From an uncultured Candidatus Saccharibacteria bacterium (GTDB taxonomy: Bacteria; Patescibacteriota; Saccharimonadia; Saccharimonadales; AWTP1-31): a stretch of 64,000 nt of DNA. The translations under genes were made by a program, and so were the position numbers. The notes under the pieces are model-generated. The model was given only the letters and a program-made list of their open reading frames with translations, searched no databases and was not told the DNA's origin. Where the stretch lies: the NCBI GenBank assembly GCA_964643545.1, contig CAZXTE010000003.1:52463-116462 (forward strand), in the 5' to 3' direction. Of this stretch, positions 12,227 through 28,283 are shown one piece after another; positions within the stretch are counted from its first letter, which is position 1; every line of letters starts with the position of its first letter.

Positions 12227-12312
12227 TATAGGCTGCGTTCTCTCGCAGCTCCGGTAGCCTGATATGATTAAACAATGGCCATAAACAACGTGTGAATTTT
12301 GTGGCAAAGAGC

Positions 12313-13443: not shown

Positions 13444-13560
13444 AAGCTCTATGCTGTTGAGTATAACACCGCTAATGCTAACTGATGTAGTGAAATTTCC
13501 ATGCTTCTAGAATTAGTGTGCTTTTGTTTATCGACTGGTGGGCGGGTATGATTCAAGACA

Positions 13561-15021
13561 ATGAAATTGTATGGCTGTCAGCTTAGACGAACAACAGGTA
13601 TCGCCATTGTATTGACATGCTTTCTGCTGGGCCTCGGTGCAGCCCGGCGTTTGCAGTGTGATGCTTTGGTGTGTGCAGTTCTCGGTGTCCTCGTTCTAGT
13701 AACGGCTAGAAAGAAAAATACGTTAAGCATATTAAGCATTGCGATGTTTTCCTTTGCACTTGGCTGTTGGCGCGGTACGGCTTTTCTGCAAAAGGTTGTT
13801 GTATATCAACAATTCGCAAAAACACCAGTTATTGTGCAGGGTATTGTCGACAGTGACGCGGTCTATGCTGATAAGTCCCAACTTTACTTTGATGTTGCAC
13901 AATTAAGGATTCTAGATCCAGTTGAGCAGCCACTGGTGGGTAAAATTGGTGTTAAGGGCTATGGCGAGACGATGGTATACAAGGGCGATATGGTGCAGGT
14001 CGAAGGTAAGTTATTCCCCACGCGTGGTTCCAAGCAGGCAAGTATAGGGTTCGCAGAAATAAAAGTTTTGCAACGCGGATCGGCTTCGATAGACAAAGTA
14101 CGGCGGAATTTTGCGAGCGGCATGACGTCTGCCTTACCAGAACCGCAAACGTCATTTGGCTTAGGCTTATTGATCGGCCAGCGAACGACGTTGCCTAAAA
14201 GTCTTACCGACCAACTATCTACTGTTGGGTTGACACACATTGTTGCTGTGTCTGGTTATAATCTTACGATCATCATGTTAGTGGTGCATCGTTTAACAGC
14301 AAAGCGGTCGAAGTATCAGTCCGCGATTTTAAGCCTAGCGCTCATCCTCGTTTTCTTATTATTGACAGGAACGGGTGCAAGCATTGTGCGGGCGGCAATT
14401 GTCAGTGCTCTGGGTCTTGCTGCTTGGTATTATGGCAGAACATTCCGTCCTATCGTTCTTATACTAATCGCCGCAACCCTGACTGCTGGGTGGTACCCGA
14501 TATATCTGTGGTCAGATCTAGGCTGGTACTTATCGTTTCTGGCATTCTTTGGCATATTGGTCGTCGGTCCACTATTTAGTAAACGTTACTTTAAAAAGCA
14601 GCCTAGACTTGTTCTGCAAATACTTGTAGAGACATCGGCTGCTCAGATAATGACATTACCGCTCATCCTGTACATCTTTGGCAGGTTATCGGTTGTGTCA
14701 CTCATGGCGAATGCATTGGTTGTACCACTGGTGCCTTTGGCTATGCTACTAAGTCTTGTCGCTGGATTGGGGGGCATGCTTGCCCCGGCAACTGCGGGTT
14801 GGCTTGCATGGCCGGCACACATACTCCTTGCATATATGATTGAAATCGTTAGGCTGCTGGCTGGTTTGCCACATGCTGCAATTGCTCAGTCGGTGAGCCT
14901 TAGCCAGATGCTTTTCTTATATTGTCTTATCGGTCTGTTGACAGCACTGCTCTGGAAAAAGACCAAGCAGAATGGTAAGATTACAGATAGAAAACAAGCT
15001 TTATCATCGGAGAACTCATGA
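13561..15021 (+). CDS. comEC: ComEC/Rec2 family competence DNA-uptake channel (no MBL domain)
   Basis: Polytopic membrane protein with the competence-domain motif GLTHIVAVSGYNLTII. Confidence 0.85.
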   Translation: MKLYGCQLRRTTGIAIVLTCFLLGLGAARRLQCDALVCAVLGVLVLVTARKKNTLSILSIAMFSFALGCWRGTAFLQKVVVYQQFAKTPVIVQGIVDSDAVYADKSQLYFDVAQLRILDPVEQPLVGKIGVKGYGETMVYKGDMVQVEGKLFPTRGSKQASIGFAEIKVLQRGSASIDKVRRNFASGMTSALPEPQTSFGLGLLIGQRTTLPKSLTDQLSTVGLTHIVAVSGYNLTIIMLVVHRLTAKRSKYQSAILSLALILVFLLLTGTGASIVRAAIVSALGLAAWYYGRTFRPIVLILIAATLTAGWYPIYLWSDLGWYLSFLAFFGILVVGPLFSKRYFKKQPRLVLQILVETSAAQIMTLPLILYIFGRLSVVSLMANALVVPLVPLAMLLSLVAGLGGMLAPATAGWLAWPAHILLAYMIEIVRLLAGLPHAAIAQSVSLSQMLFLYCLIGLLTALLWKKTKQNGKITDRKQALSSENS

Positions 15022-15746
15022 GCGGTCACTCAAAATGGTCAACCATAAAACGGCAGAAAGGTGCAAAAGACGCAGCGCGTGGTGCCGTCTTTACCAAGTT
15101 AGGTAACGCCATAGCGATTGCAGCGAGAGGTGGCGCTGACCCAGACATGAATTTCTCTTTGCGCTTGGCTATCGACAAGGCAAAATCGGCAAATATGCCC
15201 CTAGCCAACATACAACGATCCGTTGATAGGGGGAGTGGCAAGCTTGGTGGTGAGCAGATCCAGGAGCTTTTGTACGAGGGCTACGGACCGGGCGGCGTGG
15301 CGATATTGGTAGAGTGCGCGACAGATAACATCAACCGTACGTATCCTGAAGTAAAGTTGGCATTTAGTAAACACGGTGGCAACATCGCTGAGAAGGGGGC
15401 TGTTGCCTTCCAGTTTGACCACAAAGGTATGATCCGTATCAAAGGATCAGGTGATGAACTTATGTTGCAAGCACTCGATGCAGGGGCAGAAGATGTAGAA
15501 GAAGAGGGCGGCGAGACTGTTGTATATACGGGGCCTAAAGAATTAGCGAAAGTGCGCGATACGCTAAAAGCTGCCGACCTAGAAATTACAGAGGCAGAGT
15601 TAACATATGTGCCCAACAACACCGTTGCAGTAACCGATGCAGCTACTGCAGGTAAGATCATGCGCCTGATGGATGCGCTTGATGATATAGACGACGTAAC
15701 CAATACGCACGTCAACTTCGATATCCCCGAAGAGTTAGTTGGCTAA
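15018..15746 (+). CDS. YebC/PmpR family DNA-binding regulator
   Basis: MSGHSKWSTIKRQKGAKDAARG... is the hallmark N-terminus. ATGA overlap with comEC. Confidence 0.95.
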   Translation: MSGHSKWSTIKRQKGAKDAARGAVFTKLGNAIAIAARGGADPDMNFSLRLAIDKAKSANMPLANIQRSVDRGSGKLGGEQIQELLYEGYGPGGVAILVECATDNINRTYPEVKLAFSKHGGNIAEKGAVAFQFDHKGMIRIKGSGDELMLQALDAGAEDVEEEGGETVVYTGPKELAKVRDTLKAADLEITEAELTYVPNNTVAVTDAATAGKIMRLMDALDDIDDVTNTHVNFDIPEELVG

Positions 15747-15750
15747 CGCT

Positions 15751-16224
15751 ATGCGTATCATCGGGATTGATCCTGGCACAGGGATCCTAGGCTTTGGAGT
15801 GATAGATGTTGACTCACGTGGAAGCATTTCATTGGTAGATGCCGGTGTTATTCGAACGCCGGTCAAAGAAGACGATGCTGTTCGGCTGGAAACAATTTTT
15901 GACGAACTGGCAGATATTATTATGCAAAATAAACCAACAGTAATGTCGGTGGAAAAGTTATTCTTTGCACAAAATGTCACCACGGCTATGACGGTGGCGC
16001 AGGCTAGGGGGGTTGTGCTGCTGCTGGGCCAACAAAATAAACTTGACCTGCATGAATATACGCCGTTACAAATAAAACAGGCAATAACTGGCTATGGGAA
16101 AGCAGATAAGAAGCAAATGCAGGAAATGGTCAAAGTTCTCTTGGGGTTGAAAGAAGTACCAAAACCAGATGACGCGGCCGATGCGCTAGCAGCAGCTATA
16201 TGTTGCTCAATGACTGTGCGATAA
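15751..16224 (+). CDS. ruvC: Holliday junction resolvase RuvC
   Basis: MRIIGIDPGT..., EKLFF and DAADALA motifs. An alternative TTG start lies at 15739. Confidence 0.93.
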   Translation: MRIIGIDPGTGILGFGVIDVDSRGSISLVDAGVIRTPVKEDDAVRLETIFDELADIIMQNKPTVMSVEKLFFAQNVTTAMTVAQARGVVLLLGQQNKLDLHEYTPLQIKQAITGYGKADKKQMQEMVKVLLGLKEVPKPDDAADALAAAICCSMTVR

Positions 16225-16231
16225 TAGCAAT

Positions 16232-16807
16232 ATGATTGCAACGCTTAGGGGTATCGTTTCTGAAAAGCAGCACAACGGTGTTGTTTTAGAGGTTGGCGGC
16301 GTTGGCTATGGTGTGCTTACGACAACCGCAGATGGCGGAAGCTTGCGAACGGGTCACGATGCAAAAGTATATATTTATGAAAACATAAAAGAAGACACGC
16401 ACGACTTATATGGTTTTTGCTCGATCGAAACGAAACAACTCTTTGAACAGCTTATAAGTGTAAAGAACGTAGGCCCAAAAGTCGCTCTGGCAGTGCTCGA
16501 TACTGGCTCAATCGAAGATGTACGTACGGCAATTGCGGGCGGTAATGTAAAATTTTTGCAAACAGCAAAAGGCGTTGGTAAGCGCGCAGCAGAACAGATT
16601 GTCGTAGAATTGCGGGACAAGGTTGGTTCGCCGATAGGCGAAGCCGCCGAGAACGTCATAGGTAGGGCTGGTGTGAATAGCAAGGATGAGGCTGTGCAAG
16701 CACTTATTGCACTTGGTTATAGTGATATTGATGCGCAGGCGGCACTAACCAATATTGACAAGACGCTCCCAACCGAAGAGCGGATTAAACAGGCTCTACG
16801 ACGCTAA
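16232..16807 (+). CDS. ruvA: Holliday junction branch migration protein RuvA
   Basis: MIATLRG...GVGYGV OB domain, HhH motifs (VKNVGPKVALAVL, GVGKRAAEQIV), and position between ruvC and ruvB. Confidence 0.93.
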   Translation: MIATLRGIVSEKQHNGVVLEVGGVGYGVLTTTADGGSLRTGHDAKVYIYENIKEDTHDLYGFCSIETKQLFEQLISVKNVGPKVALAVLDTGSIEDVRTAIAGGNVKFLQTAKGVGKRAAEQIVVELRDKVGSPIGEAAENVIGRAGVNSKDEAVQALIALGYSDIDAQAALTNIDKTLPTEERIKQALRR

Positions 16808-16823
16808 CTGGTAGGATGAATAT

Positions 16824-17849
16824 ATGGCAATAGAACGAATCGTAGATACCAGCCCCGAAGAAGAAGTAGTTGAACTAGAGCTTGAAAATACTATTCGCCC
16901 CAAGGATTTTGTGAACTACATTGGTCAGGAACGACTGAAGGATAATCTAAAGCTTTCAATCGCTGCCGCCAAGAAGCGTGGCGAGCCGCTGGATCATGTC
17001 TTGCTGTATGGTCCTCCAGGTCTTGGCAAGACCACCATGGCAAGCGTCATTGCTAATGAAATGGGTGCCCAAATTCGCATAACCAGTGGGCCGGCTATAG
17101 AGCGTGCTGGTGATCTGGCAAGCTTACTCACCAACCTGCAAGATGGCGATATCTTATTTATTGATGAGATTCATAGACTGCACCGAACTGTCGAAGAGGT
17201 ACTGTATAGTGCCATGGAAGATTTCCGGTTAGATATTGTGCTCGGGAAGGGCCCAAGCGCACGAAGCTTACGCCTAGATTTGCCCAAGTTCACCATTATC
17301 GGCGCAACTACCCGTACCGGATCTTTGGCGGCACCGTTGCGCGATCGCTTTGGTATGATCCATCGCCTAGAATTCTATAAGCCAGACGAGATAACCAAGA
17401 TCATCCAGCGTTCTGCCAAAATTTTGGACATACATATTGATAAGGTGGCAGCTCAGGAGCTTGCTGAGCGTGCTCGTTTAACACCGAGAATTGCGAATCG
17501 TTTATTGCGTCGCGTGCGAGATTACGCAGACGTCAATGGCGATGGCATTATCGACACTACTATTACAGCACAAGCACTTAACCTTCTGGAGGTCGATAGT
17601 CTTGGCTTGGATCCAGGCGATAGGATGCTTCTCAACGCGATTATTGATCATCATCGAGGTGGCCCTGTTGGGGTGGAAACGCTAGCTGCACTCACCGCAG
17701 AAGAGCGTTCAACCATCGAAGACTTTTATGAGCCGTACCTTATGCAGATAGGCCTTATGGAGAGAACGCCACGTGGTCGAAAAGTTACGTCAAAAGCATA
17801 TAAGCATTTAGGGAAGAAGCCAGACTCGGACCAAGCTGCTCTGCTCTAG
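16824..17849 (+). CDS. ruvB: Holliday junction DNA helicase RuvB
   Basis: Walker [10 protein letters not shown], Walker B FIDEIHRL, sensor and arginine-finger regions, and a C-terminal winged helix. Confidence 0.97.
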
Positions 17850-17872
17850 AGAATGCTATACTAAGGGCAAGT

Positions 17873-18784
17873 ATGCCATTTACAAAAGAAAAGAATATGA
17901 CCGAGCCAAGTCTTGAGCGACAAGATGCAAACACGAAAGTTGTTGCAATAGTGCACCGACACCCGTTTGGCATATTAGTCATCTATCTTCAAATGTTTGT
18001 TGGGCTTGCTGCTGCGGGGCTACTTATCTACTTACTGATGCCGAGTTTAGTTAATCGCGAGGACAATCCGGGTGCATACGTTTTGGTGGGCGTTGTCATG
18101 TTGATTCTAGCGGCATTTATGGTGGTTGTTATGTTAGTAGCAACTGTTATATATCGACAAAGCAAGCTAATCATGACAGATAAAGACATAACTGAAGTCA
18201 CGCAGGAGGGCCTTTTTAATCGCCGCATTGCACAGCTTAATGTGTCGAACATAGAAGATGCCACTGCGGATCGGCGCGGTGTATTTCAGACGCTACTAAA
18301 CTTCGGTATTCTTAATATAGAAACTGCTGGAGAAACCGATAACTTCTATTTTCACTATTGTCCAGAACCCGATAAATATGCCAAGGTTGTTTTGCAGCTT
18401 AGGGAAAATTTCTTATCCAACAGGGAACGAGACAATGTAGAAGCAGGCATGCGCTATGCAAGCGCTGGTTTGCAGCAAGCAATGACGAATTCAGCACAAG
18501 CGGCTGGTTCACCTCCACCACCGCAACAAAACTATCAACCACAGCAGTCATATCAGCAACAACAAACTGATCCTGCGACTACCGAAGGCTCTTTGCAAAA
18601 CGACCATCCCAGTGTTGACCCGTATGCTCAACCTGTCGTAAGTCAGCAAACGCAGCGCGATTATAGCAACAACAACGCACCACTAGATTACGGACAGTCG
18701 GTTAGTGGTCAGGATGACAATGCAGTGCCGCCATACCCAACACCCCTAGAAGATAACCAGCGTCAATACCCCCCGCAACAGTAG
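17873..18784 (+). CDS. Membrane protein with bacterial PH (YdbT/DUF304-like) domain and Q/P-rich tail
   Basis: Two TM helices after VVAIVHRHPFG, then a bPH-like segment (LIMTDKDITEVTQEG...LNIETAG) and a low-complexity PPPPQQNYQPQQSYQQQQ C-terminus. Confidence 0.6.
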   Translation: MPFTKEKNMTEPSLERQDANTKVVAIVHRHPFGILVIYLQMFVGLAAAGLLIYLLMPSLVNREDNPGAYVLVGVVMLILAAFMVVVMLVATVIYRQSKLIMTDKDITEVTQEGLFNRRIAQLNVSNIEDATADRRGVFQTLLNFGILNIETAGETDNFYFHYCPEPDKYAKVVLQLRENFLSNRERDNVEAGMRYASAGLQQAMTNSAQAAGSPPPPQQNYQPQQSYQQQQTDPATTEGSLQNDHPSVDPYAQPVVSQQTQRDYSNNNAPLDYGQSVSGQDDNAVPPYPTPLEDNQRQYPPQQ

Positions 18785-18821
18785 ACCAGAGTTATTGCAG
18801 ACTGGGTTATGTCTAAAGGAA

Positions 18822-19265
18822 CTAGTTCAGGTTGCTTTTTGTGAATACGCCGCCGCTCTCGTAGGTCGCTGATAGGGTGTATTTTGTGCAGTCTTTTGCG
18901 TTGTTGTCGCAGTCGGTGTCATCGCTCGCTTTTACGGCGTAGCTGTAGACGTTCTTTGCAGGTTTATCTGCCAGCGCTTGCAATAATGCCTGCGGATCAC
19001 GCAGTACATCTGCGTCGAGACCCTTCATGCTAGTAGCCCGCCACTTCTCATCGTTTAGGTTCGCGAGGGTAGGATACTTTCCGGCTTGCGCAAAGTAAGA
19101 CTCTACCTGCGCATGAAGTGTTTTGATGTCATTCTGACGTTCGTTGTCACGATCTTTCTGCTTGAGACTAGAAAAGGAGGCAATCACCAAGCCAGTAAGA
19201 CCACCTACAACCAAGATCACGATGATTAACTCGATAATGGTGAAACCGCTTTGTCTTGTTTTCAT
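18822..19265 (-). CDS. Type IV pilin (prepilin-type N-terminal cleavage/methylation domain)
   Basis: GGAGGA SD lies 7 nt before ATG 19265. MKTRQSGFTIIELIIVILVVG is the class III signal (G/FTxxE). Confidence 0.9.
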   Translation of the reverse strand: MKTRQSGFTIIELIIVILVVGGLTGLVIASFSSLKQKDRDNERQNDIKTLHAQVESYFAQAGKYPTLANLNDEKWRATSMKGLDADVLRDPQALLQALADKPAKNVYSYAVKASDDTDCDNNAKDCTKYTLSATYESGGVFTKSNLN

Positions 19266-19390
19266 CAAGAAATCCTCCAAATATATTTCTTCACGTGTAC
19301 CCTATGATTATAAGCGTAAGCAAACAATGGTCAAGTTACTTTGAGTGCATACTAATAACTGCTAAAGTACTAGGGTATAAGCACGAGCAT

Positions 19391-19638
19391 TCTATGAGGG
19401 TACAAAAACACATCTACACACTTCTGTCTGTTGTTCTGCTGCTGGCTTCAGCGGTGTATATTGTATTGCCTAGACACGCACAAGCTGCCACTACATTTAC
19501 GGTAACATCTACGGGTGATCAGTCCGACACTGATTTAGGAGACAACCTTTGTGATGTTGGGGGTGGCGTCTGTACGTTACGGGCTGCTATAGAGCAGGCA
19601 AATGCTACAGCGGGTGCCGATACAATCGAGTTTAATAT
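19391..19638 (+). repeat. 248-bp perfect direct repeat, copy 1 (5' end of surface-protein gene)
   Basis: Compared base by base with 22240..22487 and found identical. Identity starts 3 nt before the ATG and stops abruptly after GAGTTTAATAT. Confidence 0.9.
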
Positions 19639-22186
19639 TGTTGGGCTGGGACTGCATACAATTCAGCCACTTACTGCTCTGCCCAATATTACAGATACGG
19701 TTATCATTGATGGCTACACTGAGCCTGGTTCTACGGCGAATTCGGCAGCATTTCCATTGCCTATGAACGGTACTCTGACAGTAGAACTGGACGGCAGTAA
19801 CTTACCACTAGATAGCAGTACCTGGGGGCTTAGGGTCAATGCAGATGATTCTGTAGTCAGGGGGCTTATTATCAATAACTTCGGCAATAGTGGCATCATT
19901 GTGGACGCCAATGGTTGTGTTGTGCAGGGTAACTACGTGGGGACTGATGAAACAGGTATGTTTGATGAAGGCAATGGACGTGGGTATGCATTGGGTTCAA
20001 TTGCCAACGGCATATTTACTGTGGCGGGTGCGAACGGTATGGTCCTGGGGGGCGTGAACCCTGAAGACAGAAACATTATTGCGGGCAACCAAGCAGGAGA
20101 CATATTTATGGGTGCAGATAATGGGACCGCACTTAATCATAGTGTGATACAGGGGAACTACATCGGTGTTGGTGCTAATGGCGTTAAGCCACTACCCTCG
20201 GGGTATGCTTTGGGTCTAGGAAATGCAATCCTGATGGAAGGTACACACTATACCCTCATAGGTGGGACTGATTCTGGAGCGGGGAATATAATTGGCAGCT
20301 CTTCTGAATACGGTATTGGTTTTCGTGAAGGAGTAACTAATACAACCATTCAGGGTAATAAAATCGGCACGGACTACACAGGTTCGCAGCTCATGACACA
20401 CACTTTAGGTACTGGCAATGCCCAGGCAGGAATACATGTCGGTATTGTTTCTAATGCCGGTTATACGCTGAAATCACACGACATACTTATAGGCGGGACG
20501 ACTGCTTCCGCGCGAAATATTATTAGTGGCAATAACAACGCGGACTCTAGTTACATTGCCGGAATAAGCCTTAACGATGGGGCGTACAACGTTACAGTCC
20601 AAGGGAATTACATTGGCACTACAAGCAGCGGATTAAGCACTTTGCCAAACGGAACAGGCGTATTATTGGATACATCTGACCCAGCTTCTTATCAACAGGC
20701 ATACGATAATACGATTGGTGGCAGTTCAGCTGGTGCTCGTAATGTCATTTCTGGTAATAAGGGATGTGGGGTTTACCTAAATGGGCCGGGTGTGACTAAC
20801 AATACGTTCAGGGGAAATTATATAGGCTTAGGGGCTGATGGTAGCACGATGGTGTCGAACGGGGAAGATGGCGTGCGGATATTGGACGGTCCTCAGAACA
20901 ATATGTTCGGGGGTGACGCAGTAGGTGAGGGTAACACCATCGTTTCTTCGACGGGCAATGATAGCTCCGCGGGTGCGGGAATTATTGCCTACGGCAGTAC
21001 TAGCAAGAATTCCTTTATCGGGAATTCAATTTACGCGAACGCTGGCCTTGGTATAGACCTGAGCCCTAAGGGTCTAACCACTAACGATTTATATGATGCT
21101 GATTCTGGCCCGAACGATCTATTAAACTACCCAGAATATACACAAGTGAACGAAGTTGGCGGTGACACAGTAATTAAGTATAGGGTTGATGTCCCTGCTG
21201 GCCAGTATAGGGTTGAATTCTTCTCTAACACGTTGGCCGACCCGAGCGGTAATGGTGAGGGGCAAACGTATTTGGGTTACGAGAACATTCTTTCAAGTGG
21301 ACCTGGATATGTAGCTCATGAGTATACGCTTGTTGGTCTCACAGGAGCCGTCAACCTAGCCTTGACTGCTACAAAAATAGATGAAGGATCCCCGACAGGC
21401 TTTGGTGTCACGAGTGAGTTTGGCGGTTTTGCAGCTCCTATTGCGGACATATCCATCGCAAAGGACATAATAAATCCTAGTGAAGTGGCGCGTGGGGCGG
21501 TTATTGACTATGGTTTAACCATGACGAATAACGGGCCAGACACCTTTGACTTAACACAGCACAGTACCCTGTTTGGTAGTCCTCCTCTGATTGTTGACTT
21601 TGCGCCACCCGACCTAGTTGCAGCCAACCGCTTGAGCGCCGGGCCGTTACAGGACAGTTTCTTTATAGACGTTGGCAACTCCGATCTTACGTGTCTTTGG
21701 GCGGGCCCGGCTTCAGCTGGTCAATATTCTGGAATAATTACATCTACCAACTATTCAGTCACACTCTGTTGGTATACGGGTACATCAACCACTGAGCTGA
21801 TCAGCGGTAGCTCTATTTTCGCTAGCATCTCATTCACCGTTTCTAACGAGTCCTCACTGGTGTTTACGAACTACGCTGTTACAGGAACGCAAAGTAGTGA
21901 TCCAGATTACGCAGCAATAACGGACATATTCAACTCGGGGAATGATATTCTGGAGGAGTATATTGCATCGAATGGCTCCATCAACAACTTTGCATCAGCT
22001 GTCTACCCTGTCCCCGTCACGCCGACACAAACCACGCAAGCCAACGCCAGCAATAACGGCGCTCTGGGCACCACTGGCCAAATTATGTACTCCTGGCAGA
22101 TGCTCGGTGTCTTCCTGGTCTCCACCGGTCTGCTTGTCCGCCAGTGGCGCAGGAAACGCTATGCTGTCTACTCTCTAAGAGCATAG
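19394..22186 (+). CDS. Giant surface protein: signal peptide, CSLREA-type N-domain, parallel beta-helix repeats, DUF11 domain, C-terminal sorting signal
   Basis: Signal peptide ...RHAQA/ATT and CTLRAAIEQAN (CSLREA motif). Many GN.IG..... beta-helix turns (IQGNYIGV, VQGNYIGT, FRGNYIGL), TNNGPD (DUF11), and a terminal LGTTGQ plus TM plus RRKR. Confidence 0.85.
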   Translation: MRVQKHIYTLLSVVLLLASAVYIVLPRHAQAATTFTVTSTGDQSDTDLGDNLCDVGGGVCTLRAAIEQANATAGADTIEFNIVGLGLHTIQPLTALPNITDTVIIDGYTEPGSTANSAAFPLPMNGTLTVELDGSNLPLDSSTWGLRVNADDSVVRGLIINNFGNSGIIVDANGCVVQGNYVGTDETGMFDEGNGRGYALGSIANGIFTVAGANGMVLGGVNPEDRNIIAGNQAGDIFMGADNGTALNHSVIQGNYIGVGANGVKPLPSGYALGLGNAILMEGTHYTLIGGTDSGAGNIIGSSSEYGIGFREGVTNTTIQGNKIGTDYTGSQLMTHTLGTGNAQAGIHVGIVSNAGYTLKSHDILIGGTTASARNIISGNNNADSSYIAGISLNDGAYNVTVQGNYIGTTSSGLSTLPNGTGVLLDTSDPASYQQAYDNTIGGSSAGARNVISGNKGCGVYLNGPGVTNNTFRGNYIGLGADGSTMVSNGEDGVRILDGPQNNMFGGDAVGEGNTIVSSTGNDSSAGAGIIAYGSTSKNSFIGNSIYANAGLGIDLSPKGLTTNDLYDADSGPNDLLNYPEYTQVNEVGGDTVIKYRVDVPAGQYRVEFFSNTLADPSGNGEGQTYLGYENILSSGPGYVAHEYTLVGLTGAVNLALTATKIDEGSPTGFGVTSEFGGFAAPIADISIAKDIINPSEVARGAVIDYGLTMTNNGPDTFDLTQHSTLFGSPPLIVDFAPPDLVAANRLSAGPLQDSFFIDVGNSDLTCLWAGPASAGQYSGIITSTNYSVTLCWYTGTSTTELISGSSIFASISFTVSNESSLVFTNYAVTGTQSSDPDYAAITDIFNSGNDILEEYIASNGSINNFASAVYPVPVTPTQTTQANASNNGALGTTGQIMYSWQMLGVFLVSTGLLVRQWRRKRYAVYSLRA

Positions 22187-22239
22187 TTCCATCACTCGAA
22201 CGTATCTGTTAAAATACAATAGACATAACGCTTATGTTG

Positions 22240-22487
22240 TCTATGAGGGTACAAAAACACATCTACACACTTCTGTCTGTTGTTCTGCTGCTGGCTTCAG
22301 CGGTGTATATTGTATTGCCTAGACACGCACAAGCTGCCACTACATTTACGGTAACATCTACGGGTGATCAGTCCGACACTGATTTAGGAGACAACCTTTG
22401 TGATGTTGGGGGTGGCGTCTGTACGTTACGGGCTGCTATAGAGCAGGCAAATGCTACAGCGGGTGCCGATACAATCGAGTTTAATAT
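22240..22487 (+). repeat. 248-bp perfect direct repeat, copy 2
   Basis: See copy 1. Confidence 0.9.
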
Positions 22488-24591
22488 AGCCCCACTCGAT
22501 GGGGGCGTGAAGACGATCGTACTTGATAACTCAGTCTTGCCAGACATTACCTCTGAAATCACTATAGACGGCTATACCCAAGACCCTACAGTAAGTGAGC
22601 CAAACTCTGCTGTTGCACCTAATCCATTTAATGGAACGTTGCTAATTGAACTTAATGGGCAGAATACGCCAGATAACGATGCTTCGGCAGGGCTTTTGCT
22701 AAACACAGGTTCGGATAATAGTGTAATAAAGGGTCTTGTCATAAATCGCTTCCCAGGGTCTGGTATAGGGATTAACCCTGGAGTAGATGGAGTAATAATT
22801 CGGGGAAATTATGTTGGAACAGACCCAACTGGAATGATCGCGCGACCAAATAAAAGAACGGCTATTAATACATTCAGTTTAGCTGTTGATAGTGGCGGGC
22901 CAACTAATGGACTGCTTGGTGGTAGTCAACCGGCTGACCGTAATATACTGTCGGGTAATTCGTGCAGTTGTGCTGACCCAGCTAAGTACCCGCAAGGTAT
23001 TTCGATTGCAGGCGGTGCAAATAACTGGGTTATTAAAGGCAATTATGTTGGTGTTGCTTCAGATGGCGTAACTGCTATGGGCAACGATGCAGGGGGTATA
23101 ACGGTCGATTATGTTAATGGTCTTGTGCTCGGTGGATCCGAAACAGGGGCGGCGAATATATTTTCTGGCAATGGAGATGGTGGGATCCAGCCTGACTACA
23201 CAACGAACATGGTTATTCAGGGCAACTACATAGGGACTGATTATACCGGTACAGTGCCCGTTCCGAATGCGTCAAAAGGTATATCGGTAGCATATGGCAG
23301 CAACAATATACTAATTGGTGGTGATCAGCCCGGGGCAGGTAATATAATTGCAAATGCACCTAATGGATTCCCTGGGGTGTATACAACGTCTGCCATGTTT
23401 GGCCAGCCAGATACGGACAACATTTCTATAATCGGGAACTCAATATTTAATAATGACTCATTGGGGATAGACGTTAACCTCGATGGCTTAACACTAAATG
23501 ATCCCCTAGACTCCGATTCTGGTTCAAATGGCCTTCTTAACTACCCAGAATACTCTTCTGTTACTGAGTCTGCCGGCAATACCACAGTTGAGTACCGCCT
23601 GGATGTGCCTGCGGGTAATTATCGCATAGAATTCTTCTCTAACACTGCCGCAGACCCTTCTGGTAAAGGCGAGGGCGAGACATACCTCGGGTTCCAAAAC
23701 ATCAGCCATGCCGGCGGTGGTGCAGAGTTCCGTACCCACGTATTAACCGGTGTCACTGGGGTAACGAATTTGGCAATGACAGCAACGCAACGAGATAATT
23801 CGGCAGATGGCTTTGGTGCAACCAGTGAGTTCGGTGGCCAATATACTCCTGTTGCGGACGTATCCGCCACAAAGACCCTTCTAAACCCTCAAGATGTAGC
23901 GCAGGGTGCAACAGTTAACTATGATGTCGCCATAACTAATAATGGGCCAGATAACCTAGACCTTACAGAATTCACAAACGTAGGCGCTGGTCCACCACTT
24001 ATTGTGGATTACGCGCCGCCAGACCTAACTGCTGCTAACCAGCTGGCTGCAGGTCCAGCACCGGATAGCTTCTTCATTGACGTTGGTAATCCTGACCTTG
24101 CATGTCTTTGGGCCGGCCCTAACTCAGGCGGCCTATATATAGGCCTTACTACATATGCCGACTATTCTCTAACGTCCTGTTGGTATACAGGCGCTCTTAC
24201 TGAGCTTGCTCCTGGCAGCTCCATATCATCCACTATTTCTTTTACAATAGCTAATGACTCATCTTTGGTCTTCACAAACTATGTCGTTGGAGGAAATCCT
24301 GCTACAGATCCAGACAGCGCTGCGATTGGTGCGATATTCACGACTGGGGATGATGTTCTGGAGATGTTAATAGCTTCGAGTGGCACCATAAACAACTTCG
24401 CCTCTGCAGCCTACCCTGTCCCTGTCGCGCCCACACAAACCACTCAACCCACCGCTAACAATGGTGCTCTTGGCACCACCGGCCAGATTGTGTACTCGTG
24501 GCAGATGCTAGTTGTCTTTTCTATATCCACCGCATTGCTAATCCATAAATGGCGAACAACAAAAACTAATACATATAAGATAATTCGCTAA
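22243..24591 (+). CDS. Paralogous giant surface protein (CSLREA / beta-helix / DUF11 / sorting signal)
   Basis: Same architecture as 19394..22186, and the first 82 codons are identical at the nucleotide level. An alternative ATG lies at 22234. Confidence 0.85.
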   Translation: MRVQKHIYTLLSVVLLLASAVYIVLPRHAQAATTFTVTSTGDQSDTDLGDNLCDVGGGVCTLRAAIEQANATAGADTIEFNIAPLDGGVKTIVLDNSVLPDITSEITIDGYTQDPTVSEPNSAVAPNPFNGTLLIELNGQNTPDNDASAGLLLNTGSDNSVIKGLVINRFPGSGIGINPGVDGVIIRGNYVGTDPTGMIARPNKRTAINTFSLAVDSGGPTNGLLGGSQPADRNILSGNSCSCADPAKYPQGISIAGGANNWVIKGNYVGVASDGVTAMGNDAGGITVDYVNGLVLGGSETGAANIFSGNGDGGIQPDYTTNMVIQGNYIGTDYTGTVPVPNASKGISVAYGSNNILIGGDQPGAGNIIANAPNGFPGVYTTSAMFGQPDTDNISIIGNSIFNNDSLGIDVNLDGLTLNDPLDSDSGSNGLLNYPEYSSVTESAGNTTVEYRLDVPAGNYRIEFFSNTAADPSGKGEGETYLGFQNISHAGGGAEFRTHVLTGVTGVTNLAMTATQRDNSADGFGATSEFGGQYTPVADVSATKTLLNPQDVAQGATVNYDVAITNNGPDNLDLTEFTNVGAGPPLIVDYAPPDLTAANQLAAGPAPDSFFIDVGNPDLACLWAGPNSGGLYIGLTTYADYSLTSCWYTGALTELAPGSSISSTISFTIANDSSLVFTNYVVGGNPATDPDSAAIGAIFTTGDDVLEMLIASSGTINNFASAAYPVPVAPTQTTQPTANNGALGTTGQIVYSWQMLVVFSISTALLIHKWRTTKTNTYKIIR

Positions 24592-24683
24592 CATTTTGTA
24601 CATAAGCAGTTAACTTGTTGCCGGACTTGCTATACTATCTGAACACAGAGAGAACTAAGCTAAGGGTAGCAAAGGGGTAGAGG

Positions 24684-25715
24684 ATGGCTGACAAGAAAAC
24701 GGACAATGCTAAAAGCAACAACGCCGAGTCTGACGGCAAGAGTAAGGCGCTCGGTTTGGCGCTAGACAGTATTGAGAAACAGTTTGGCAAGGGCTCCATT
24801 ATGAAGATGGGTGACTCGTATGCGACTAAAGTAGAATGTATTCCGACAGGCAGTTTATCGCTCGATCTTGCGCTTGGCGGTGGTATACCCAAAGGAAGAA
24901 TCATAGAAATTTATGGCCCGGAATCGTCAGGGAAAACGACTCTAACCCTTCATGCTATTGCCGAAATACAAAAACAAGGCGGTACGGCAGCGTTCATTGA
25001 CGCAGAGCATGCGCTTGATCCAGCGTATGCAAAACGAATCGGCGTAGACGTAGAAAACCTCTTGCTTAGCCAGCCCGACAACGGCGAACAGGCACTCGAA
25101 ATTGCCGAGACCTTGGTGCGCAGCAATGCGGTTGACCTGATTGTGGTTGACTCGGTTGCAGCCCTGGTGCCACGTGCCGAGATCGAGGGAGATATGGGCG
25201 ATAGTCATATGGGCCTGCAGGCTCGGCTTATGAGCCAAGCACTTCGTAAGCTAACGGGCGTTATTTCACGTTCAAACGCTACGGTTGTATTTATCAACCA
25301 GATTCGTATGAAGATTGGGGTGATGTTTGGTAACCCAGAAACCACCACAGGTGGTAACGCACTCAAGTTCTATGCATCAGTTCGCATGGACATCCGTCGT
25401 ATTGCGCAGATCAAGCAAGGCGAAAGTATTATTGGCAACCGAACTCGTGTAAAAGTTGTTAAGAACAAAATTGCTCCGCCGTTTCGGCAGGCAGAGTTCG
25501 ACATTATGTATAACGAAGGAATATCCAAGGCAGGTGATGTGTTGGACCTTGCGGTAACACACGAGATTGTCGAAAAGTCCGGCGCGTGGTTTGCGTATAA
25601 AGGCGAGAAGATTTCCCAAGGGCGAGAGGCCGCCAAGGTGTACCTGGTTGCAAATCCAAAAGTGCTCGAAGAGATTGCAAAAAAAGTTACAGAAGCCGCC
25701 GCAAAAGAAGCATAA
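24684..25715 (+). CDS. recA: Recombinase RecA
   Basis: KQFGKGSIM, Walker [10 protein letters not shown], and the L1/L2 loop regions ([30 protein letters not shown]). Confidence 0.98.
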
Positions 25716-25770
25716 GAACTACTTGCATTCTTGTAGCAAAGTCGTATAGTACGTCCATAGATCTAATGCT

Positions 25771-26112
25771 ATGAGCGGAATCCTTCATCCTAATCAACAA
25801 CCAAACGCACATTTACTCATCGGGCGACAACCGCATGGGTTGGTGCCTGACGCAATGCTCGCACATCTAATAGGCGTTCCGCTGCCGGTCTTTGGCGATG
25901 CGAGGCATGAACGTGGGGCTGAGTTATATGAATATGCAGTTGGCGCACCGCTTGCGGAGCTTGATGTTGTGCGTGTCGAAACGTTTGACATTATAGAGGC
26001 TCTTTCTCACCGTAGCCATGCGGCAGCTGAACGCTTTGAGCGTGAGGTATTGGGGCATGGACAGATGTTGCTACGCGTCTCACTTGGTCTGGGTTCTTAC
26101 GAAGTGCATTGA
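25771..26112 (+). CDS. Hypothetical protein (113 aa)
   Basis: The only sizeable ORF in the recA-downstream gap. No motif recognised. Confidence 0.4.
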   Translation: MSGILHPNQQPNAHLLIGRQPHGLVPDAMLAHLIGVPLPVFGDARHERGAELYEYAVGAPLAELDVVRVETFDIIEALSHRSHAAAERFEREVLGHGQMLLRVSLGLGSYEVH

Positions 26113-26136
26113 TACAAATACGCTATACTGTCCTGT

Positions 26137-26706
26137 ATGAAACGAGCAGTAATCTTGCACGCTATGGAACAAAATTCTCAGGGCCACTGGTACCCATGGC
26201 TTAAGGCTGAGTTAGAGAAACGTGGGTACGAAGTTTTTGTGCCGAATTTACCCAGCCCGAAACTGCCAAGTACGGAGGAGATGACTGCTTACTTACTCGA
26301 TCAAACAGACTGGGATTTTTCAGACAATCTCGTTATTGGGCATTCCTCTGGCGCGGTTGAAGTTTTATATTTGCTGCAAGCTCTGGGCCCAAGGGTAAAG
26401 ATCAACTGCGGTGTGCTGGTCGGGTCTTTTGAAAAGCCAGTAACTGGTATGGAAGCGCAACATGCCAAGATGTTTAACACACCACTTAATTTTCAAGAAG
26501 CCAAGCTGCACGCGACAAGATTGCTTTTTGTTCATGGAGATGATGATCCGTGGTGTCCGCTCGAGGGCGCAAAACACCTAGCGGAGTTAACAGATGCTGA
26601 GTTGGTTGTAGTGCCTAGAGGTAAACATTTTAGTACCAGTCTAGACCCCGCCTATACTGAATTCCCGAAACTACTGCAAATTTTAGAAGAGCGAGACCTG
26701 GTTTGA
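26137..26706 (+). CDS. RBBP9/YdeN-family serine hydrolase (alpha/beta fold)
   Basis: ILHAMEQNSQGHWYPWL, nucleophile GHSSGA and VHGDDDPWCP match the PF06821-type pattern. Confidence 0.75.
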   Translation: MKRAVILHAMEQNSQGHWYPWLKAELEKRGYEVFVPNLPSPKLPSTEEMTAYLLDQTDWDFSDNLVIGHSSGAVEVLYLLQALGPRVKINCGVLVGSFEKPVTGMEAQHAKMFNTPLNFQEAKLHATRLLFVHGDDDPWCPLEGAKHLAELTDAELVVVPRGKHFSTSLDPAYTEFPKLLQILEERDLV

Positions 26707-27152
26707 CGGGTTTTAATCACGCCGCAACGGGAGCTATTTTAGCGTTGACCATAAAACAGCCAGCGCTTGTTTTGCCTCTGGCGTTTGTTTCGCACCTTGT
26801 GTTGGATTCTGTACCGCACTTTGGCGTGGGTGAGAATCAAAGAGAGGTCTCCAAATCTGCCGAGCGGATGTTATGGTCGGATATTATTCTTGTGCCCAGT
26901 TTTTTTATTGCCATGTTGCTTATTACGCAAAACTGGCTAGTTATAGCGGCAATGCTGATGGCAATTTTGCCAGATCTTATCTGGTTTCCTTCTTTTGCTG
27001 CAAATCATTTCTTTGGAAAATCATTCAAGAAACCAGCCGATCCGTTCACGCGTTTCCATAGTTGGATCCAATGGGGTGAGCGACCGTGGGGCTGGATCAT
27101 CGAAATTCCGTACAGTTTTGTTGCAATTTTTGTGCTGACAGCGCTACGCTAG
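26703..27152 (+). CDS. Membrane-bound metal-dependent hydrolase-like protein (DUF457/YdjM-like)
   Basis: TTGA overlap start. N-terminus GFNHAATGA...SHLVLDSVPH and 3-4 TM helices. Confidence 0.5.
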   Translation: MTGFNHAATGAILALTIKQPALVLPLAFVSHLVLDSVPHFGVGENQREVSKSAERMLWSDIILVPSFFIAMLLITQNWLVIAAMLMAILPDLIWFPSFAANHFFGKSFKKPADPFTRFHSWIQWGERPWGWIIEIPYSFVAIFVLTALR

Positions 27153-27157
27153 ACCAT

Positions 27158-27763
27158 ATGAAAATTACTGCAATAAAACAACAGGTTAAGCGGCCGGACA
27201 GGTACTCCATCTTTGTGGAAGGAAAATTTGTGTTTGGCCTGAGCGAATCAGCGCTGCTGCAGAGCAAGGTTTACCTTGGTCAAGAGATAGATGCGAACGA
27301 ACTAGAGAGCCTCAAAGACGGGGCGACTTTAGACAAGGCGTATCAAGCATGCTTAGGGCTGATTGCGCGACGGCAGCGAAGCCACTGGGAAATGGAGACG
27401 TATCTACGTAGGAAAGGATACGAAATAGAATTGATAGAAAAGGTGATGAAGAAGCTCATCGCAAAGGGCTATGTTGACGATACTGCATTCGCTAAGGCAT
27501 GGCTAGACAACAGGCGACTGCTGAAACACATCAGTAAACAACGGTTGATTCAGGAGTTGCGGCAGAAACGAGTGGCCGATAGCATCATTGACACTGTTGT
27601 AGCGGCAGACACGGAAGAAGACGCGCACGTTCTTGCGGCATTGGTGTTACGCAAGCGCCAACAGTCGCGGTACAAGGATAACGTCAAGCTCATGCAGTAT
27701 CTTGTTCGACAAGGGTTCCGCTATGAAGATGTAAAGGCGGCGGTCCAGGACACGATTAGCTAG
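27158..27763 (+). CDS. recX: Regulatory protein RecX
   Basis: KRPDRYSIFVEGKFVFGLSE... N-terminus and three-helix repeats (RRKGYEIELIEKVMKKLIAKGYVDDTAFA). Confidence 0.85.
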   Translation: MKITAIKQQVKRPDRYSIFVEGKFVFGLSESALLQSKVYLGQEIDANELESLKDGATLDKAYQACLGLIARRQRSHWEMETYLRRKGYEIELIEKVMKKLIAKGYVDDTAFAKAWLDNRRLLKHISKQRLIQELRQKRVADSIIDTVVAADTEEDAHVLAALVLRKRQQSRYKDNVKLMQYLVRQGFRYEDVKAAVQDTIS

Positions 27764-28283
27764 CAACCGCGGGTGCGGGCATCCCAGCAGGAACTGGCTG
27801 AAGTGGATCCTGAATAACAATTTTCCGGTTTGTGATTTCGACAATCTGATTACGATCAACGCCTAAATTCCCACCGGTGACGCTCTTGATAATTGATTGT
27901 GACACGTAGATCTTTTGGATATATAGATCACCTAACTCGGTAGAAAAGTCACTCACTTTTCCGAGCCGTTGTTTGCTGGTGGTTACGACAGTTTTGCCGA
28001 GTAGTTCAAAATTAACACGCAAAGTTTCGCGTAAACGAATCAAATCCTCTGGATGAGCTAGTACATCGTGATCATTCACTACGATACCTACGGGAAGAAT
28101 ATCGCGAATATCCTGAGAAAGTAATATCAGTTGCAGCTTCTTGTCGACGGAGTCTTGGCAATAGAAGCCCTCTATCTTAAGGTTGTTTGGGTTAATGATT
28201 GGCTGCGTGACGGTGCCTATACGCCCACCAGTTCGGAGACTCATGACGGGCTTATTAAGGAGACTCTGGCTTAGTACTTGCAT
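27756..28283 (-). CDS. PRC-barrel domain protein (two PRC-like repeats)
   Basis: LLNKPVMSLRTGGRIGTV and LLGKTVVTTSKQRLGKVSDF are PRC-barrel-like beginnings. Start taken at MQVLSQS. Confidence 0.5.
   Translation of the reverse strand: MQVLSQSLLNKPVMSLRTGGRIGTVTQPIINPNNLKIEGFYCQDSVDKKLQLILLSQDIRDILPVGIVVNDHDVLAHPEDLIRLRETLRVNFELLGKTVVTTSKQRLGKVSDFSTELGDLYIQKIYVSQSIIKSVTGGNLGVDRNQIVEITNRKIVIQDPLQPVPAGMPAPAVAS

Follow-up and report, generated by a model that had tools for sequence, protein, structure and literature searches.

Genes A and B lie in tandem in the window, by which the whole analysed stretch of 64,000 nt is meant, between a divergently oriented type IV pilin-like gene and recA, with comEC and a ruvC, ruvA, ruvB group further upstream (Table 1). 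An earlier note on this DNA, made from the sequence alone, had described the two products as giant surface proteins, which is an overstatement since at their lengths they are large only. The adjacent type IV pilin gene mentioned in that note has been found, and the N-terminus of its product reads MKTRQSG/FTIIELIIV. In the public annotation of gene A (P0003, 960 amino acids) the start has been placed 30 codons too early. A sigma70-like motif TTGACC-16-TATAAT is located at 19334-19307 on the minus strand; neither the promoter scan in which it was detected nor the terminator scan gave an output above the shuffled expectation, and neither gene A nor gene B could be assigned a promoter. A serine recombinase gene at 5377-7212, 12 kb from the locus, is the only recombinase noticed. 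The counterparts of genes A and B are designated A'/B' or L1A/L1B in lineage L001, L2A/L2B in L002 and A'''/B''' in L019; in comparisons with them gene B of the window is called winB.

Table 1 Features of the A-B locus and its surroundings (positions in the window)
Feature	Position	Strand	Remarks
comEC	13561-15021		upstream of the locus; Pfam
ruvC, ruvA, ruvB	15739-17849		upstream of the locus; Pfam
Type IV pilin-like gene	18822..19265	-	divergent from gene A; matches to PF07963 N_methyl and TIGR02532 and to the N-termini of GspG, PilA and ComGC models
Gene A upstream (promoter) region	19266..19390	+	orthologous to L001 A' upstream; non-homologous to B upstream
Gene A	19394..22186	+	930 aa; putative mosaic CSLREA/beta-helix/Ig-like/LxxTG surface protein
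5' cassette, gene A copy (putative recipient)	19391..19638	+	3 nt leader, signal peptide, CSLREA cap, up to FNI motif
Gene A body	19639..21974	+	residues 83 to ~660, "type C" beta-helix; allele apparently replaced relative to the sister lineage
Gene A 3' module	21975..22186	+	PVPVTPTQTTQ linker, LGTTG sorting-signal-like motif, hydrophobic helix, RRKR tail; orthologous to L001 A' and L019
A-B intergenic/gene B upstream	22187..22239	+	no terminator-like site predicted
Gene B	22243..24591	+	782 aa; 95% aa identity to sister-lineage orthologue
5' cassette, gene B copy (putative donor)	22240..22487	+	orthologous to L001 B' 5' end, 89.6% nt identity
B-type body module	22468..24422	+	83% nt identity to L2B of another Saccharibacteria species (blastn)
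recA	24684..25715	+	context only; Pfam

A repeat search in the region 17000-28000 returned a single family of direct repeats, composed of two copies of 248 nt which are 100% identical, spaced by 2849 nt and located at the 5' ends of genes A and B. A 38-mer internal to the repeat has two exact occurrences in the window versus 0 expected. The identical tract (referred to as the cassette) starts 3 nt 5' of the ATG codons at 19394 and 22243 and terminates after base 2 of codon 82 (GAG TTT AAT AT); the codon itself reads ATT in A and ATA in B, so that 82 residues are identical in the two proteins. Signal-peptide cleavage within the cassette is predicted at AQA/A. The 3' edge falls into an 8-nt sequence of the FNI motif, TTTAATAT, which is the sole nucleotide island that the cassette has in common with type-C genes and is also found in the type-C gene P0055. 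Beyond the repeat the nucleotide identity of A and B drops abruptly to ~45-57% (~20-40% at third positions) and synonymous sites in the flanks are saturated. Inside the cassette dS between A and B equals 0.016, essentially zero, versus between-lineage values (window against L001) of 0.32 for recA, 0.42 for ruvB and 0.44 for winB and L1B over the cassette. The earlier note had reported the exact identity of 248 bp at both positions, its composition of 3 nt, signal peptide and CSLREA domain (82 codons in all), an abrupt boundary with diverged beta-helix regions behind it, and unrelated upstream regions, and was accurate on all these points; in the alignment the two upstream regions are non-homologous save for a short -10-like box. 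The figure of ~80% identity given there for the C-terminal regions applies to the last ~70 codons (74-83%) but not to the C-terminal half as a whole, which is 60-70% identical at the nucleotide level. No inverted repeats were detected within 17000-28000 and no further copies of the cassette in the 64-kb window. An exhaustive HMMER search of 1.84 billion representatives revealed no other protein with the cassette at >70% identity, and the sequence spanning the cassette/type-C junction gave 0 matches in the JGI metagenomes scanned; with a degenerate MRVQKHIY pattern 5 matches were obtained, all spurious.

The CSLREA_Nterm model TIGR04214 matches residues 35-70 of both proteins with 25.5 bits for A and 27.4 bits for B (curated cutoff of 25 bits), and by this cutoff A and B are members of the CSLREA proteins, a family which amounts to a domain definition only. 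The domain was found by HMMER in 7,719 cluster representatives; many giant proteins have it as an internal, repeated unit, so that its position is not strictly N-terminal. Neither a function nor a recombination behaviour of CSLREA is described in the literature searched, where the listed papers naming it concerned Acinetobacter baumannii. Pfam models Beta_helix (PF13229) and NosD (PF05048) gave no match in A or B at E<=0.01, and many homologues of the two proteins carry both. The structure of the gene B protein was predicted with AlphaFold (AF2, pLDDT 87.8). The model comprises a signal-peptide helix (residues 4-24), a cap helix (62-71), a predicted right-handed beta-helix (~76-411), Ig-like sandwiches (436-724), a disordered linker with LGTTG (731-748) and a probable transmembrane helix (745-781). 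In the Foldseek search the beta-helix, with its short strands and beta-helix period, matched the A-module of AlgE4 (2pyg_B, TMt 0.56 over 422 columns), the model also matched a K1 capsule lyase, and the Ig-like part gave fold matches to integrin, transglutaminase and AgI/II Ig-like domains. The join between cassette and body appears to keep the structural register in the model, with TIEFN as the first beta-strand. At the C-terminus protein A carries LGTTG, IMYSWQMLGVFLVSTGLLV and RQWRRKR, and protein B LGTTG and a terminal HKWRTTK; LGTTG is a variant of LPXTG, and sorting-like motifs of the homologues include LAATG, LPSTG, LPTTG, LASTG and LAAAGTNE. Models of anchor domains gave no match in A or B at E<=0.01 in the ncbifam scan, which returned only CSLREA_Nterm, and no sortase homologue was found by tblastn within the 64-kb window; a sortase gene directly adjoins the homologous genes in L002-L005, L016 and L017. 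Both proteins are predicted to be built of a signal peptide, a CSLREA cap, a beta-helix, Ig-like domains and a candidate LxxTG anchor.

The origin of the identity was approached by comparison with L001, a syntenic sister lineage with the same order pilin-A-B-recA. Its flanks are 90-93% identical to those of the window (the blastn block 12303-19509 of the window corresponds to L001 346-7573 with 90.4% identity), and 5' of 19391 gene A remains orthologous to A'. In L001 the 5' ends of A' and B' are just 83% identical over 139 nt and their CSLREA parts ~60%, the CSLREA segment of A' being different and aligned with indels. Among the informative sites of the window cassette 65 match sister B and 9 match sister A, which indicates a transfer from B as donor to A as recipient, well after the lineage split; in the signal-peptide part, with 10 B-type versus 5 A-type sites, the direction is ambiguous. 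Over codons 1-38 dS between L1A and L1B is 0.43, the level of the lineage split, which points to an earlier, shorter conversion. Between 19509 and 21975 gene A has no blastn match to A' of L001, and homology resumes at 21975. Two proposals of the earlier note gain support here: recent gene conversion, now with the direction B to A and with dS near zero in the cassette against 0.32-0.44 between lineages, and the shuffling of central regions among strains, as the A body is devoid of a nucleotide homologue in A' in spite of such similar flanks.

Comparisons with more distant homologues extend the picture. A GTDB scan with protein B identified only an L001-like MAG, CTOTU2456, plus unrelated phyla. 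Residues 83 to ~660 of protein A share 64-84% of amino acids with P0041, 57-76% with P0055 and 33-46% with L001 A' or with B; over residues 721-850 the identity to B is 62%, and the 3' module displays 84-92% amino acid identity to L1A and P0012. Homology of gene A to L019 begins at 21975, the same base at which L001 homology resumes. Gene A appears to be a mosaic of its own promoter region, a B-derived cassette, a type-C body and an orthologous 3' module with a putative sorting signal. The body types are old lineages with orthologues elsewhere (type A in L2A, type B in L2B, type C in P0041 and P0055), and synonymous sites between them are saturated. Homology between L2B and winB spans the B-type body module, one edge of which lies ~20 nt away from that of the cassette and the other where the 3' module begins, the 5' and 3' modules of L2B being unrelated to those of winB; homology between L2A and L1A spans L001 7692-9766, and P0005 shows upstream collinearity with L2A and, over its body, with L2B. 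Altogether 5' modules and body types occurred in 7 combinations among the homologues, and three junctions recur across lineages, one between signal peptide and CSLREA, one at the FNI motif (codon 82) and one at position 21975 of the window.

A''' and B''' of L019 share their first 55 nt without a mismatch and differ from the window cassette at 11 of these 55 positions; the paralog-identical tract of at least 55 nt appears to reflect concerted evolution. The two L002 paralogs resemble each other in the 5' module (85-88% amino acid identity), where both carry one and the same insertion of 13 aa, and their bodies group separately, one with L1A and the other with winB. The L002 5' modules are saturated at synonymous sites (pS 0.76), hence homogenisation in L002 is old; the similarity of these modules at the protein level could in part be due to stronger constraint. 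The window and the L002 species have no flanking genes in common for an estimate of genome-wide divergence; with dS of 0.70 for the B body versus 1.9 for the A body, the B body may have moved horizontally. The equivalent locus contains one gene in L017 and two in L002. On the comparison of only three lineages of this clade, locus A appears to be a variable slot and locus B a stable one.

We propose that the 248-bp identity is quite probably the footprint of recent non-reciprocal homologous recombination (gene conversion), one case of module shuffling in the whole family. Gene B, the downstream one, would have imposed its 5' module (3 nt leader, signal peptide and CSLREA cap) on the upstream paralog A, overwriting the counterpart there. 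On the left the tract would extend to the start codon, where the homology of A and B has its edge, across a stretch presumably homogenised once before, near the sister split, and on the right it would stop in TTTAATAT of the conserved FNI motif, beyond which the type-C body of A has no nucleotide similarity to B. The event may have been RecA-dependent, for example if a break in A was repaired by synthesis-dependent strand annealing and joined through microhomology at FNI. The family would be built of four modules (5' signal-peptide/cap, beta-helix, Ig-like and 3' sorting signal) with recombination at the same junctions both inside a Saccharibacteria genome and from one such genome to another.

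Several other readings have been weighed against gene conversion. An artefact of assembly or polishing would imply that the true 5' end of gene A differs and that B sequence has been threaded or written over it. The source is a 135.5 kb contig of metagenome type, examined here in its assembled form; in the SPAdes MAG CTOTU2456 a contig breaks inside the signal-peptide region of A'' and one contig head consists of a 55-nt B-type k-mer running on as A-type sequence, and both ends of L019 lie in the shared 55-mer. A graph error, however, would need the swapped piece to overlap exactly by k or more on either side, and on the right side B and the type-C body share only 8-9 nt, so that the link from B-type CSLREA to type-C body must truly be present in reads; mis-threading could affect no more than the left, signal-peptide part and would shorten the tract without abolishing it. 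At 60-83% identity the paralogs lie beyond what polishing can homogenise, the gene order is fixed by unique flanks matching L001, the reading frames of A and B are both intact, and the independent lineage L019 also has identical paralog 5' ends, all of which makes an artefact quite unlikely. A small chance may be given to a single chimera-forming event, for instance within an ancestral array of at least three genes (deletion or unequal crossover) or by the homology-facilitated illegitimate integration of foreign type-C DNA, through which the A promoter became fused to a gene already equipped with the B cassette. The location of the right junction in microhomology only, the variable copy number at the equivalent locus, the collinearity of P0005 with L2A and then L2B, and the replacement of the A body between lineages are in accord with it, but a 100% copy of the B cassette, and hence recombination between paralogs, would still be needed, and no remnant of a third gene is present in the window.

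It is extremely improbable that the identity has been kept by selection on nucleotides, as in a 5' mRNA or regulatory element, or that it was left by a recent duplication of the whole gene followed by hypermutation of the body, as by a diversity-generating retroelement. The identical tract does start at the translation start region, and diversity-generating retroelements occur in CPR bacteria. The sister A' has a different CSLREA segment with indels, however, from which it follows that the identity in the window is derived rather than conserved; the bodies are ancient lineages that have orthologues elsewhere and saturated synonymous sites between them, the repeat lacks adenine-specific mismatches and sits at the 5' end, and inverted repeats are absent from the locus. 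The direct assignment as a target of such a retroelement was rejected, the repeat being 100% identical and at the 5', not the 3' end. Also rejected were a shufflon or other site-specific inversion (no inverted repeats in 17000-28000, the sole noticed recombinase 12 kb off) and silent-cassette variation of the pilE/pilS type, as A and B are each a complete ORF preceded by an upstream region of its own, and there are no more copies in the window.

The gene conversion that we favour seems to be, by analogy, a mechanism of a known kind and resembles the babA/babB chimeras of Helicobacter pylori, which arise by intragenomic recombination with a 5' crossover ~60-240 bp from the start codon and with locus occupancy that varies by strain (PMC4552749). 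Like babA, babB and babC, A and B are full-length paralogous surface-protein genes with N-terminal homology, a divergent middle and C-terminal homology: the 248 bp 5' tract, the divergent bodies, the 3' module 74-83% identical and the A locus differing between lineages parallel the bab arrangement. As in the bab case, the tract of identity contradicts the divergence of flanks and orthologues, and a donor can be named. The Bab proteins are Gram-negative outer-membrane beta-barrel adhesins encoded at dispersed loci with CT-repeat phase variation, whereas A and B are encoded in tandem as putative sortase-type, predicted beta-helix proteins without a simple-repeat switch, and unlike in bab the right junction rests on microhomology only. 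For bab RecA dependence and in vivo switching have been demonstrated, whereas A and B are known at the level of sequence.

Non-reciprocal transfer of segments between related surface-protein sequences of one genome is also a feature of Neisseria pilE/pilS, Borrelia vlsE and Mycoplasma genitalium MgPar. In those systems many promoterless silent cassettes give variable segments to one expression site, whereas here two complete genes, the only copies in 64 kb, would trade a conserved end module and not the variable part. With the mosaic, sortase-anchored adhesins of Gram-positives (e.g. streptococcal M and M-like proteins of the emm region, AgI/II) A and B share the signal peptide, the variable ectodomain, conserved ends and, as a candidate only, the LPXTG-type anchor, as well as tandem paralogs and modular recombination between alleles and species; the predicted Ig-like part of B resembles the C-terminal domains of AgI/II. 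They differ from these adhesins in the predicted CSLREA-capped right-handed beta-helix ectodomain, the Patescibacteria/Saccharibacteria affiliation of the organism and the LGTTG motif variant. Gene conversion in Saccharibacteria was not found described in the literature searched. Conversion among paralogous adhesin genes being classical, the value of the locus lies in a well-documented case in an under-studied phylum and not in a new principle.

Attachment to host bacteria is the way of life of Saccharibacteria and other Patescibacteria, and Saccharibacteria are naturally competent and piliated. To our knowledge, host recognition by Patescibacteria is largely unknown beyond type IV pili, and the locus is a concrete candidate for a variable surface determinant of an epibiont: the slot of gene A contains different beta-helix bodies and caps in three closely related lineages, and the stable paralog B adjoins it. 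Recombination at fixed module junctions appears from the alignments to be both recent and recurrent. Its outcome would be variation of a host-contacting surface protein, and a role in the antigenic or host-range variation of these putative adhesins may be envisaged. The conserved end modules might serve as homology arms for allele replacement by transformation. Taken further, they would be portable arms of a cassette-exchange system in which whole beta-helix bodies (A, B, C) are swapped into the variable slot by the pilin gene, with paralogs or other strains and species as donors, recurrent conversion keeping the arms identical and swaps changing the attachable hosts; this extension we offer tentatively, as possible but rather doubtful. 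Through the present direct repeats the A body may in turn be deleted or duplicated, and perfect repeats of 248 bp lying 2.85 kb apart predict deletion and duplication variants visible in long reads. The locus is also expected to break or mis-thread short-read MAG assemblies, and it did so in two public assemblies examined.

A repeat search of 17000-28000 revealed no inverted repeats and a single direct-repeat family, two copies of 248 nt (19391-19638 and 22240-22487) that are 100% identical and lie 2849 nt apart; the window contains exactly two copies of a 38-mer taken from it (0 expected in shuffles). The copies form the common 5′ end (cassette) of the tandem surface-protein genes A and B, starting 3 nt before the ATGs at 19394 and 22243 and ending two bases into codon 82, which reads ATT in A and ATA in B, a synonymous difference. 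In a codon-aware alignment codons 1-81 are 100% identical, and past the cassette identity falls suddenly to ~45% of nucleotides, with third positions (20-40%) at saturation and one 145-codon indel. The repeat search and this alignment bear out exactly the sharply bounded, identical cassette described in the earlier note. Its figure of ~80% identity for the whole C-terminal region was too high, since the C-terminal half shows 60-70% nucleotide identity and 74-83% is reached only in the last ~70 codons, and "giant" overstates proteins of 930 and 782 aa.

Features of the A/B locus and of its protein products
Feature	Position	Strand	Description or basis
Type IV pilin-like gene	18822-19265	-	divergent, upstream of gene A
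Gene A	19394-22186	+	930 aa, tandem with gene B
Gene B	22243-24591	+	782 aa, tandem with gene A
Gene A, 5′ segment	residues 1-82		identical to gene B of the same genome; protein segment identity
Gene A, type C beta-helix body	residues 83 to ~660		64-84% to homologue P0041, 57-76% to homologue P0055, 33-46% to A′ (sister lineage) or B; protein segment identity
Gene A, C-terminal segment	residues 721-850		62% to B, 44% to A′; protein segment identity
Gene A, C-terminal end	residues 851-930		84% to A′; protein segment identity
Gene B, signal-peptide helix	residues 4-24		AlphaFold2 model
Gene B, cap helix CTLRAAIEQAN	residues 62-71		AlphaFold2 model
Gene B, first strand TIEFN	residues 76-80		AlphaFold2 model
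Gene B, beta-helix	up to about residue 411		AlphaFold2 model
Gene B, Ig-like sandwiches	residues 436-724		AlphaFold2 model
Gene B, disordered linker	residues 731-748		AlphaFold2 model
Gene B, transmembrane helix	residues 745-781		AlphaFold2 model

TIGR04214 (CSLREA_Nterm) matches both products above its cutoff at residues 35-70. Pfam gave no match for the gene A protein and only DUF11, below threshold, for that of gene B; Beta_helix, NosD and DUF11 are present in many of their homologues. In Foldseek searches with the AlphaFold2 model of gene B, built from 48 homologues (pLDDT 87.8), the helix resembled the AlgE4 A-module (2pyg_B, TMt 0.56) and the C-terminal part the Ig-like domains of integrin, transglutaminase and streptococcal AgI/II. 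Together with the domain match, the model predicts that the 248-bp cassette encodes the signal peptide, the N-terminal cap and the first strand of the beta-helix. A protein library search also found the CSLREA unit internally, in up to 6-8 copies in giant proteins of up to 7146 aa, which is consistent with CSLREA capping each beta-helix module. Both proteins end in LGTTG followed by a hydrophobic stretch and a basic tail, the equivalent motifs of homologues being LAATG, LPSTG, LPTTG and LAAAGTNE; a sortase gene adjoins homologous genes at other Saccharibacteria loci, and none was found within the 64-kb window. The public annotation of gene A (P0003, 960 aa) adds 30 codons (19304-19393) ahead of the conserved start at MRVQKH, so that the signal peptide would be buried.

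The direction and age of the transfer were read from a syntenic sister lineage, L001 (a 508-kb contig from ENA), in which ruvB, the gene of a 310-aa protein (its window copy matches the Pfam bacterial PH domain), the pilin gene, A′ (831 aa), B′ (786 aa) and recA follow in the same order as in the window, with flanks of 90.4% and 92.9% identity. Within L001 the 5′ ends of A′ and B′ are only 83% identical, over 139 nt, and in the CSLREA segments the two genes are set apart by two indels and by differences at ~40% of positions. The window cassette (19391-19638) is B′-like at 65 informative sites and A′-like at 9, 12 further sites being private to the window, and upstream of 19391 gene A still aligns as the orthologue of A′; B was thus the donor and A the recipient, whose 5′ module was overwritten. 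This direction is clear for 19512-19638 and weaker for the signal-peptide part (10 B-type vs 5 A-type sites). Within the cassette dS between A and B is 0.016, a single site, vs 0.32 (recA), 0.42 (ruvB) and 0.44 (gene B over the cassette) between window and L001, which argues for a conversion much younger than the split of the lineages. Over codons 1-38 of A′ and B′ dS is 0.43, the level of that split, which points to a previous conversion near that time, shorter and affecting the signal-peptide part. The recent recombination between paralogs proposed in the earlier note is thus supported by the L001 comparison and dS, as far as sequence can tell.

Gene A is a mosaic, with no nucleotide-level homology to A′ over 19509-21975. 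The right edge of the cassette falls in TTTAATAT, the site of the FNI motif, of which F80 and I82 are invariant in 48 homologues; apart from TTTAATAT, the B cassette and type-C genes share no nucleotide island (at this point P0055 has AAG TTT AAT ATT GCT).

The junctions recur elsewhere. A tandem pair in another Saccharibacteria species (L002-L005), located in a different context (TGT … sortase), combines one A-type body (L2A; 71-83% aa and 73% nt identity to A′) with one B-type body (L2B; 88-96% aa and 83% nt identity to gene B). The 5′ module of this pair is common to both L002 genes and includes the promoter (TTGCGN17TAYAAT), an insertion of 13 aa and a deletion; it is 83% identical in nucleotides and 85-88% in amino acids between them and only 30-60% identical to the window type. 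The near-consensus L002 promoters (1276-1306, 3800-3830) end ~9 nt before the start codon, implying very short leaders for both genes; in the window, the regions upstream of A and B yielded no comparable consensus. Nucleotide homology is confined to 22468-24422 for L2B and gene B and to L001 7692-9766 for L2A and A′. One limit of each block lies within ~25 nt of the edge of the cassette, the other where the 3′ module begins; the stretch L001 9742-9766 also marks the return of homology between L001 and the window, at window position 21975. Homology of the window to a third lineage, L019 (JGI, protein P0012), likewise begins exactly at 21975. P0012 combines a window-type signal peptide, an L002-type CSLREA cap, an A-type body and an A-type 3′ module (92% aa identity to gene A). 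The L019 contig carries the same 55 nt at its start and its end, so its two paralogs, A‴ and B‴, agree fully over their first 55 nt, of which 11/55 positions depart from the window cassette; this is an independent homogenisation, the signature of concerted evolution. Seven combinations of 5′-module type and body type occur among homologues. The B body (22488-24422) has a dS of 0.21 to L001, below that of its 5′ cassette (0.44), its 3′ module (0.37) and flanking housekeeping genes, and between species dS is 0.70 for B-type bodies (gene B-L2B) vs 1.9 for A-type bodies (A′-L2A); the lower values of B bodies suggest that body modules move between lineages. The TGT-sortase locus holds a tandem pair in L002 (1315-6185) and, in the species of L017 (10001-12310, GCA_964600985.1), one CSLREA gene. 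That single gene follows L2A collinearly over the upstream region and the 5′ module, and L2B over the first half of the body; it is either fusion-like or an ancestral single copy.

That the identical 5′ end of A is an assembly artefact is very unlikely. Short-read assemblers are visibly confused by the locus (CTOTU2456, L019): CTOTU2456, an L001-like SPAdes MAG, breaks inside the signal-peptide region of its A″ gene (L010 end/L006 start, DAISWP010000001 and DAISWP010000006). Contig 6 opens with a 55-nt B-type k-mer and runs on as A-type sequence, the assembly graph having crossed over at the run of 41-44 nt common to the paralogs. A graph artefact, however, can form only where sequences overlap exactly for k or more nucleotides, and the right junction has just 8-9 nt in common, so the join of B-type CSLREA to type-C body must be present in the reads; mis-threading is possible only for the left ~120 nt of the tract. 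A chimera formed in one step by deletion or illegitimate integration would be a variant of the recombinational explanation and is unlikely; the one- vs two-gene difference at the TGT-sortase locus shows that such events occur. Selection on the nucleotide sequence and DGR, shufflon or silent-cassette systems are contradicted by the repeat search, the divergent L001 5′ ends, segment identities, dS and the protein-library search.

At the sequence level the comparisons thus document that the 5′ module of B was transferred non-reciprocally into A, that a shorter 5′ stretch had been homogenised before, that the A body was replaced as an allele between sister lineages, and that modules reassorted at three junctions that recur (signal peptide|CSLREA, FNI and the 3′ module start). 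A break in A may have been repaired by RecA with B as template; the signal-peptide region, similar by then, would have provided the anchor, and microhomology at FNI the closing join. As perfect direct repeats, the two cassettes would now allow the A body to be deleted or duplicated, and the conserved ends could serve as homology arms for imported alleles; comEC and the pilin gene adjoin the pair in the window, an adjacency not kept in L002. The outcome would be surface or host-range variation.

The feature is real and its mechanism of a known kind. The closest analogue is babA/babB/babC of H. pylori, paralogs in which homologous N- and C-terminal regions enclose a variable middle and whose chimeras arise by conversion with a 5′ crossover ~60-240 bp from the start codon (PMC4552749). 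Gram-positive bacteria offer a second analogue in their mosaic LPXTG adhesins. The A/B pair differs in its CSLREA-capped beta-helix fold, tandem arrangement, phylum and microhomology right junction. Literature searches returned, among the papers listed, Acinetobacter baumannii papers for CSLREA, and unrelated papers only for "Saccharibacteria" with "gene conversion". The pair adds a new, well-resolved example of paralog conversion in Saccharibacteria, the nearest named relative being a "Candidatus Saccharibacteria bacterium" MAG.

The pair is bracketed by comEC, yebC, ruvC, ruvA and ruvB upstream (within 13561-17849) and recA and recX downstream (within 24684-27763), with the same synteny in L001; this association with recombination/competence genes is probably coincidental, because the L002-L005 pair sits elsewhere. 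The pilin gene has a dS of 0.90 and a dN of 0.009 to its L001 orthologue (dS of recA 0.32, ruvB 0.42), which may reflect recombinational import or different codon constraints. A 1031-aa protein (43413-46508, minus strand) with VWA, SpaA-like prealbumin-fold and DUF7507 domains shares its predicted architecture with the tip adhesins of Gram-positive pili. At 5377-7212 (minus strand), 12 kb from the A/B locus, a large serine recombinase of 611 aa with a Resolvase N-terminal domain possibly marks an integrated element.
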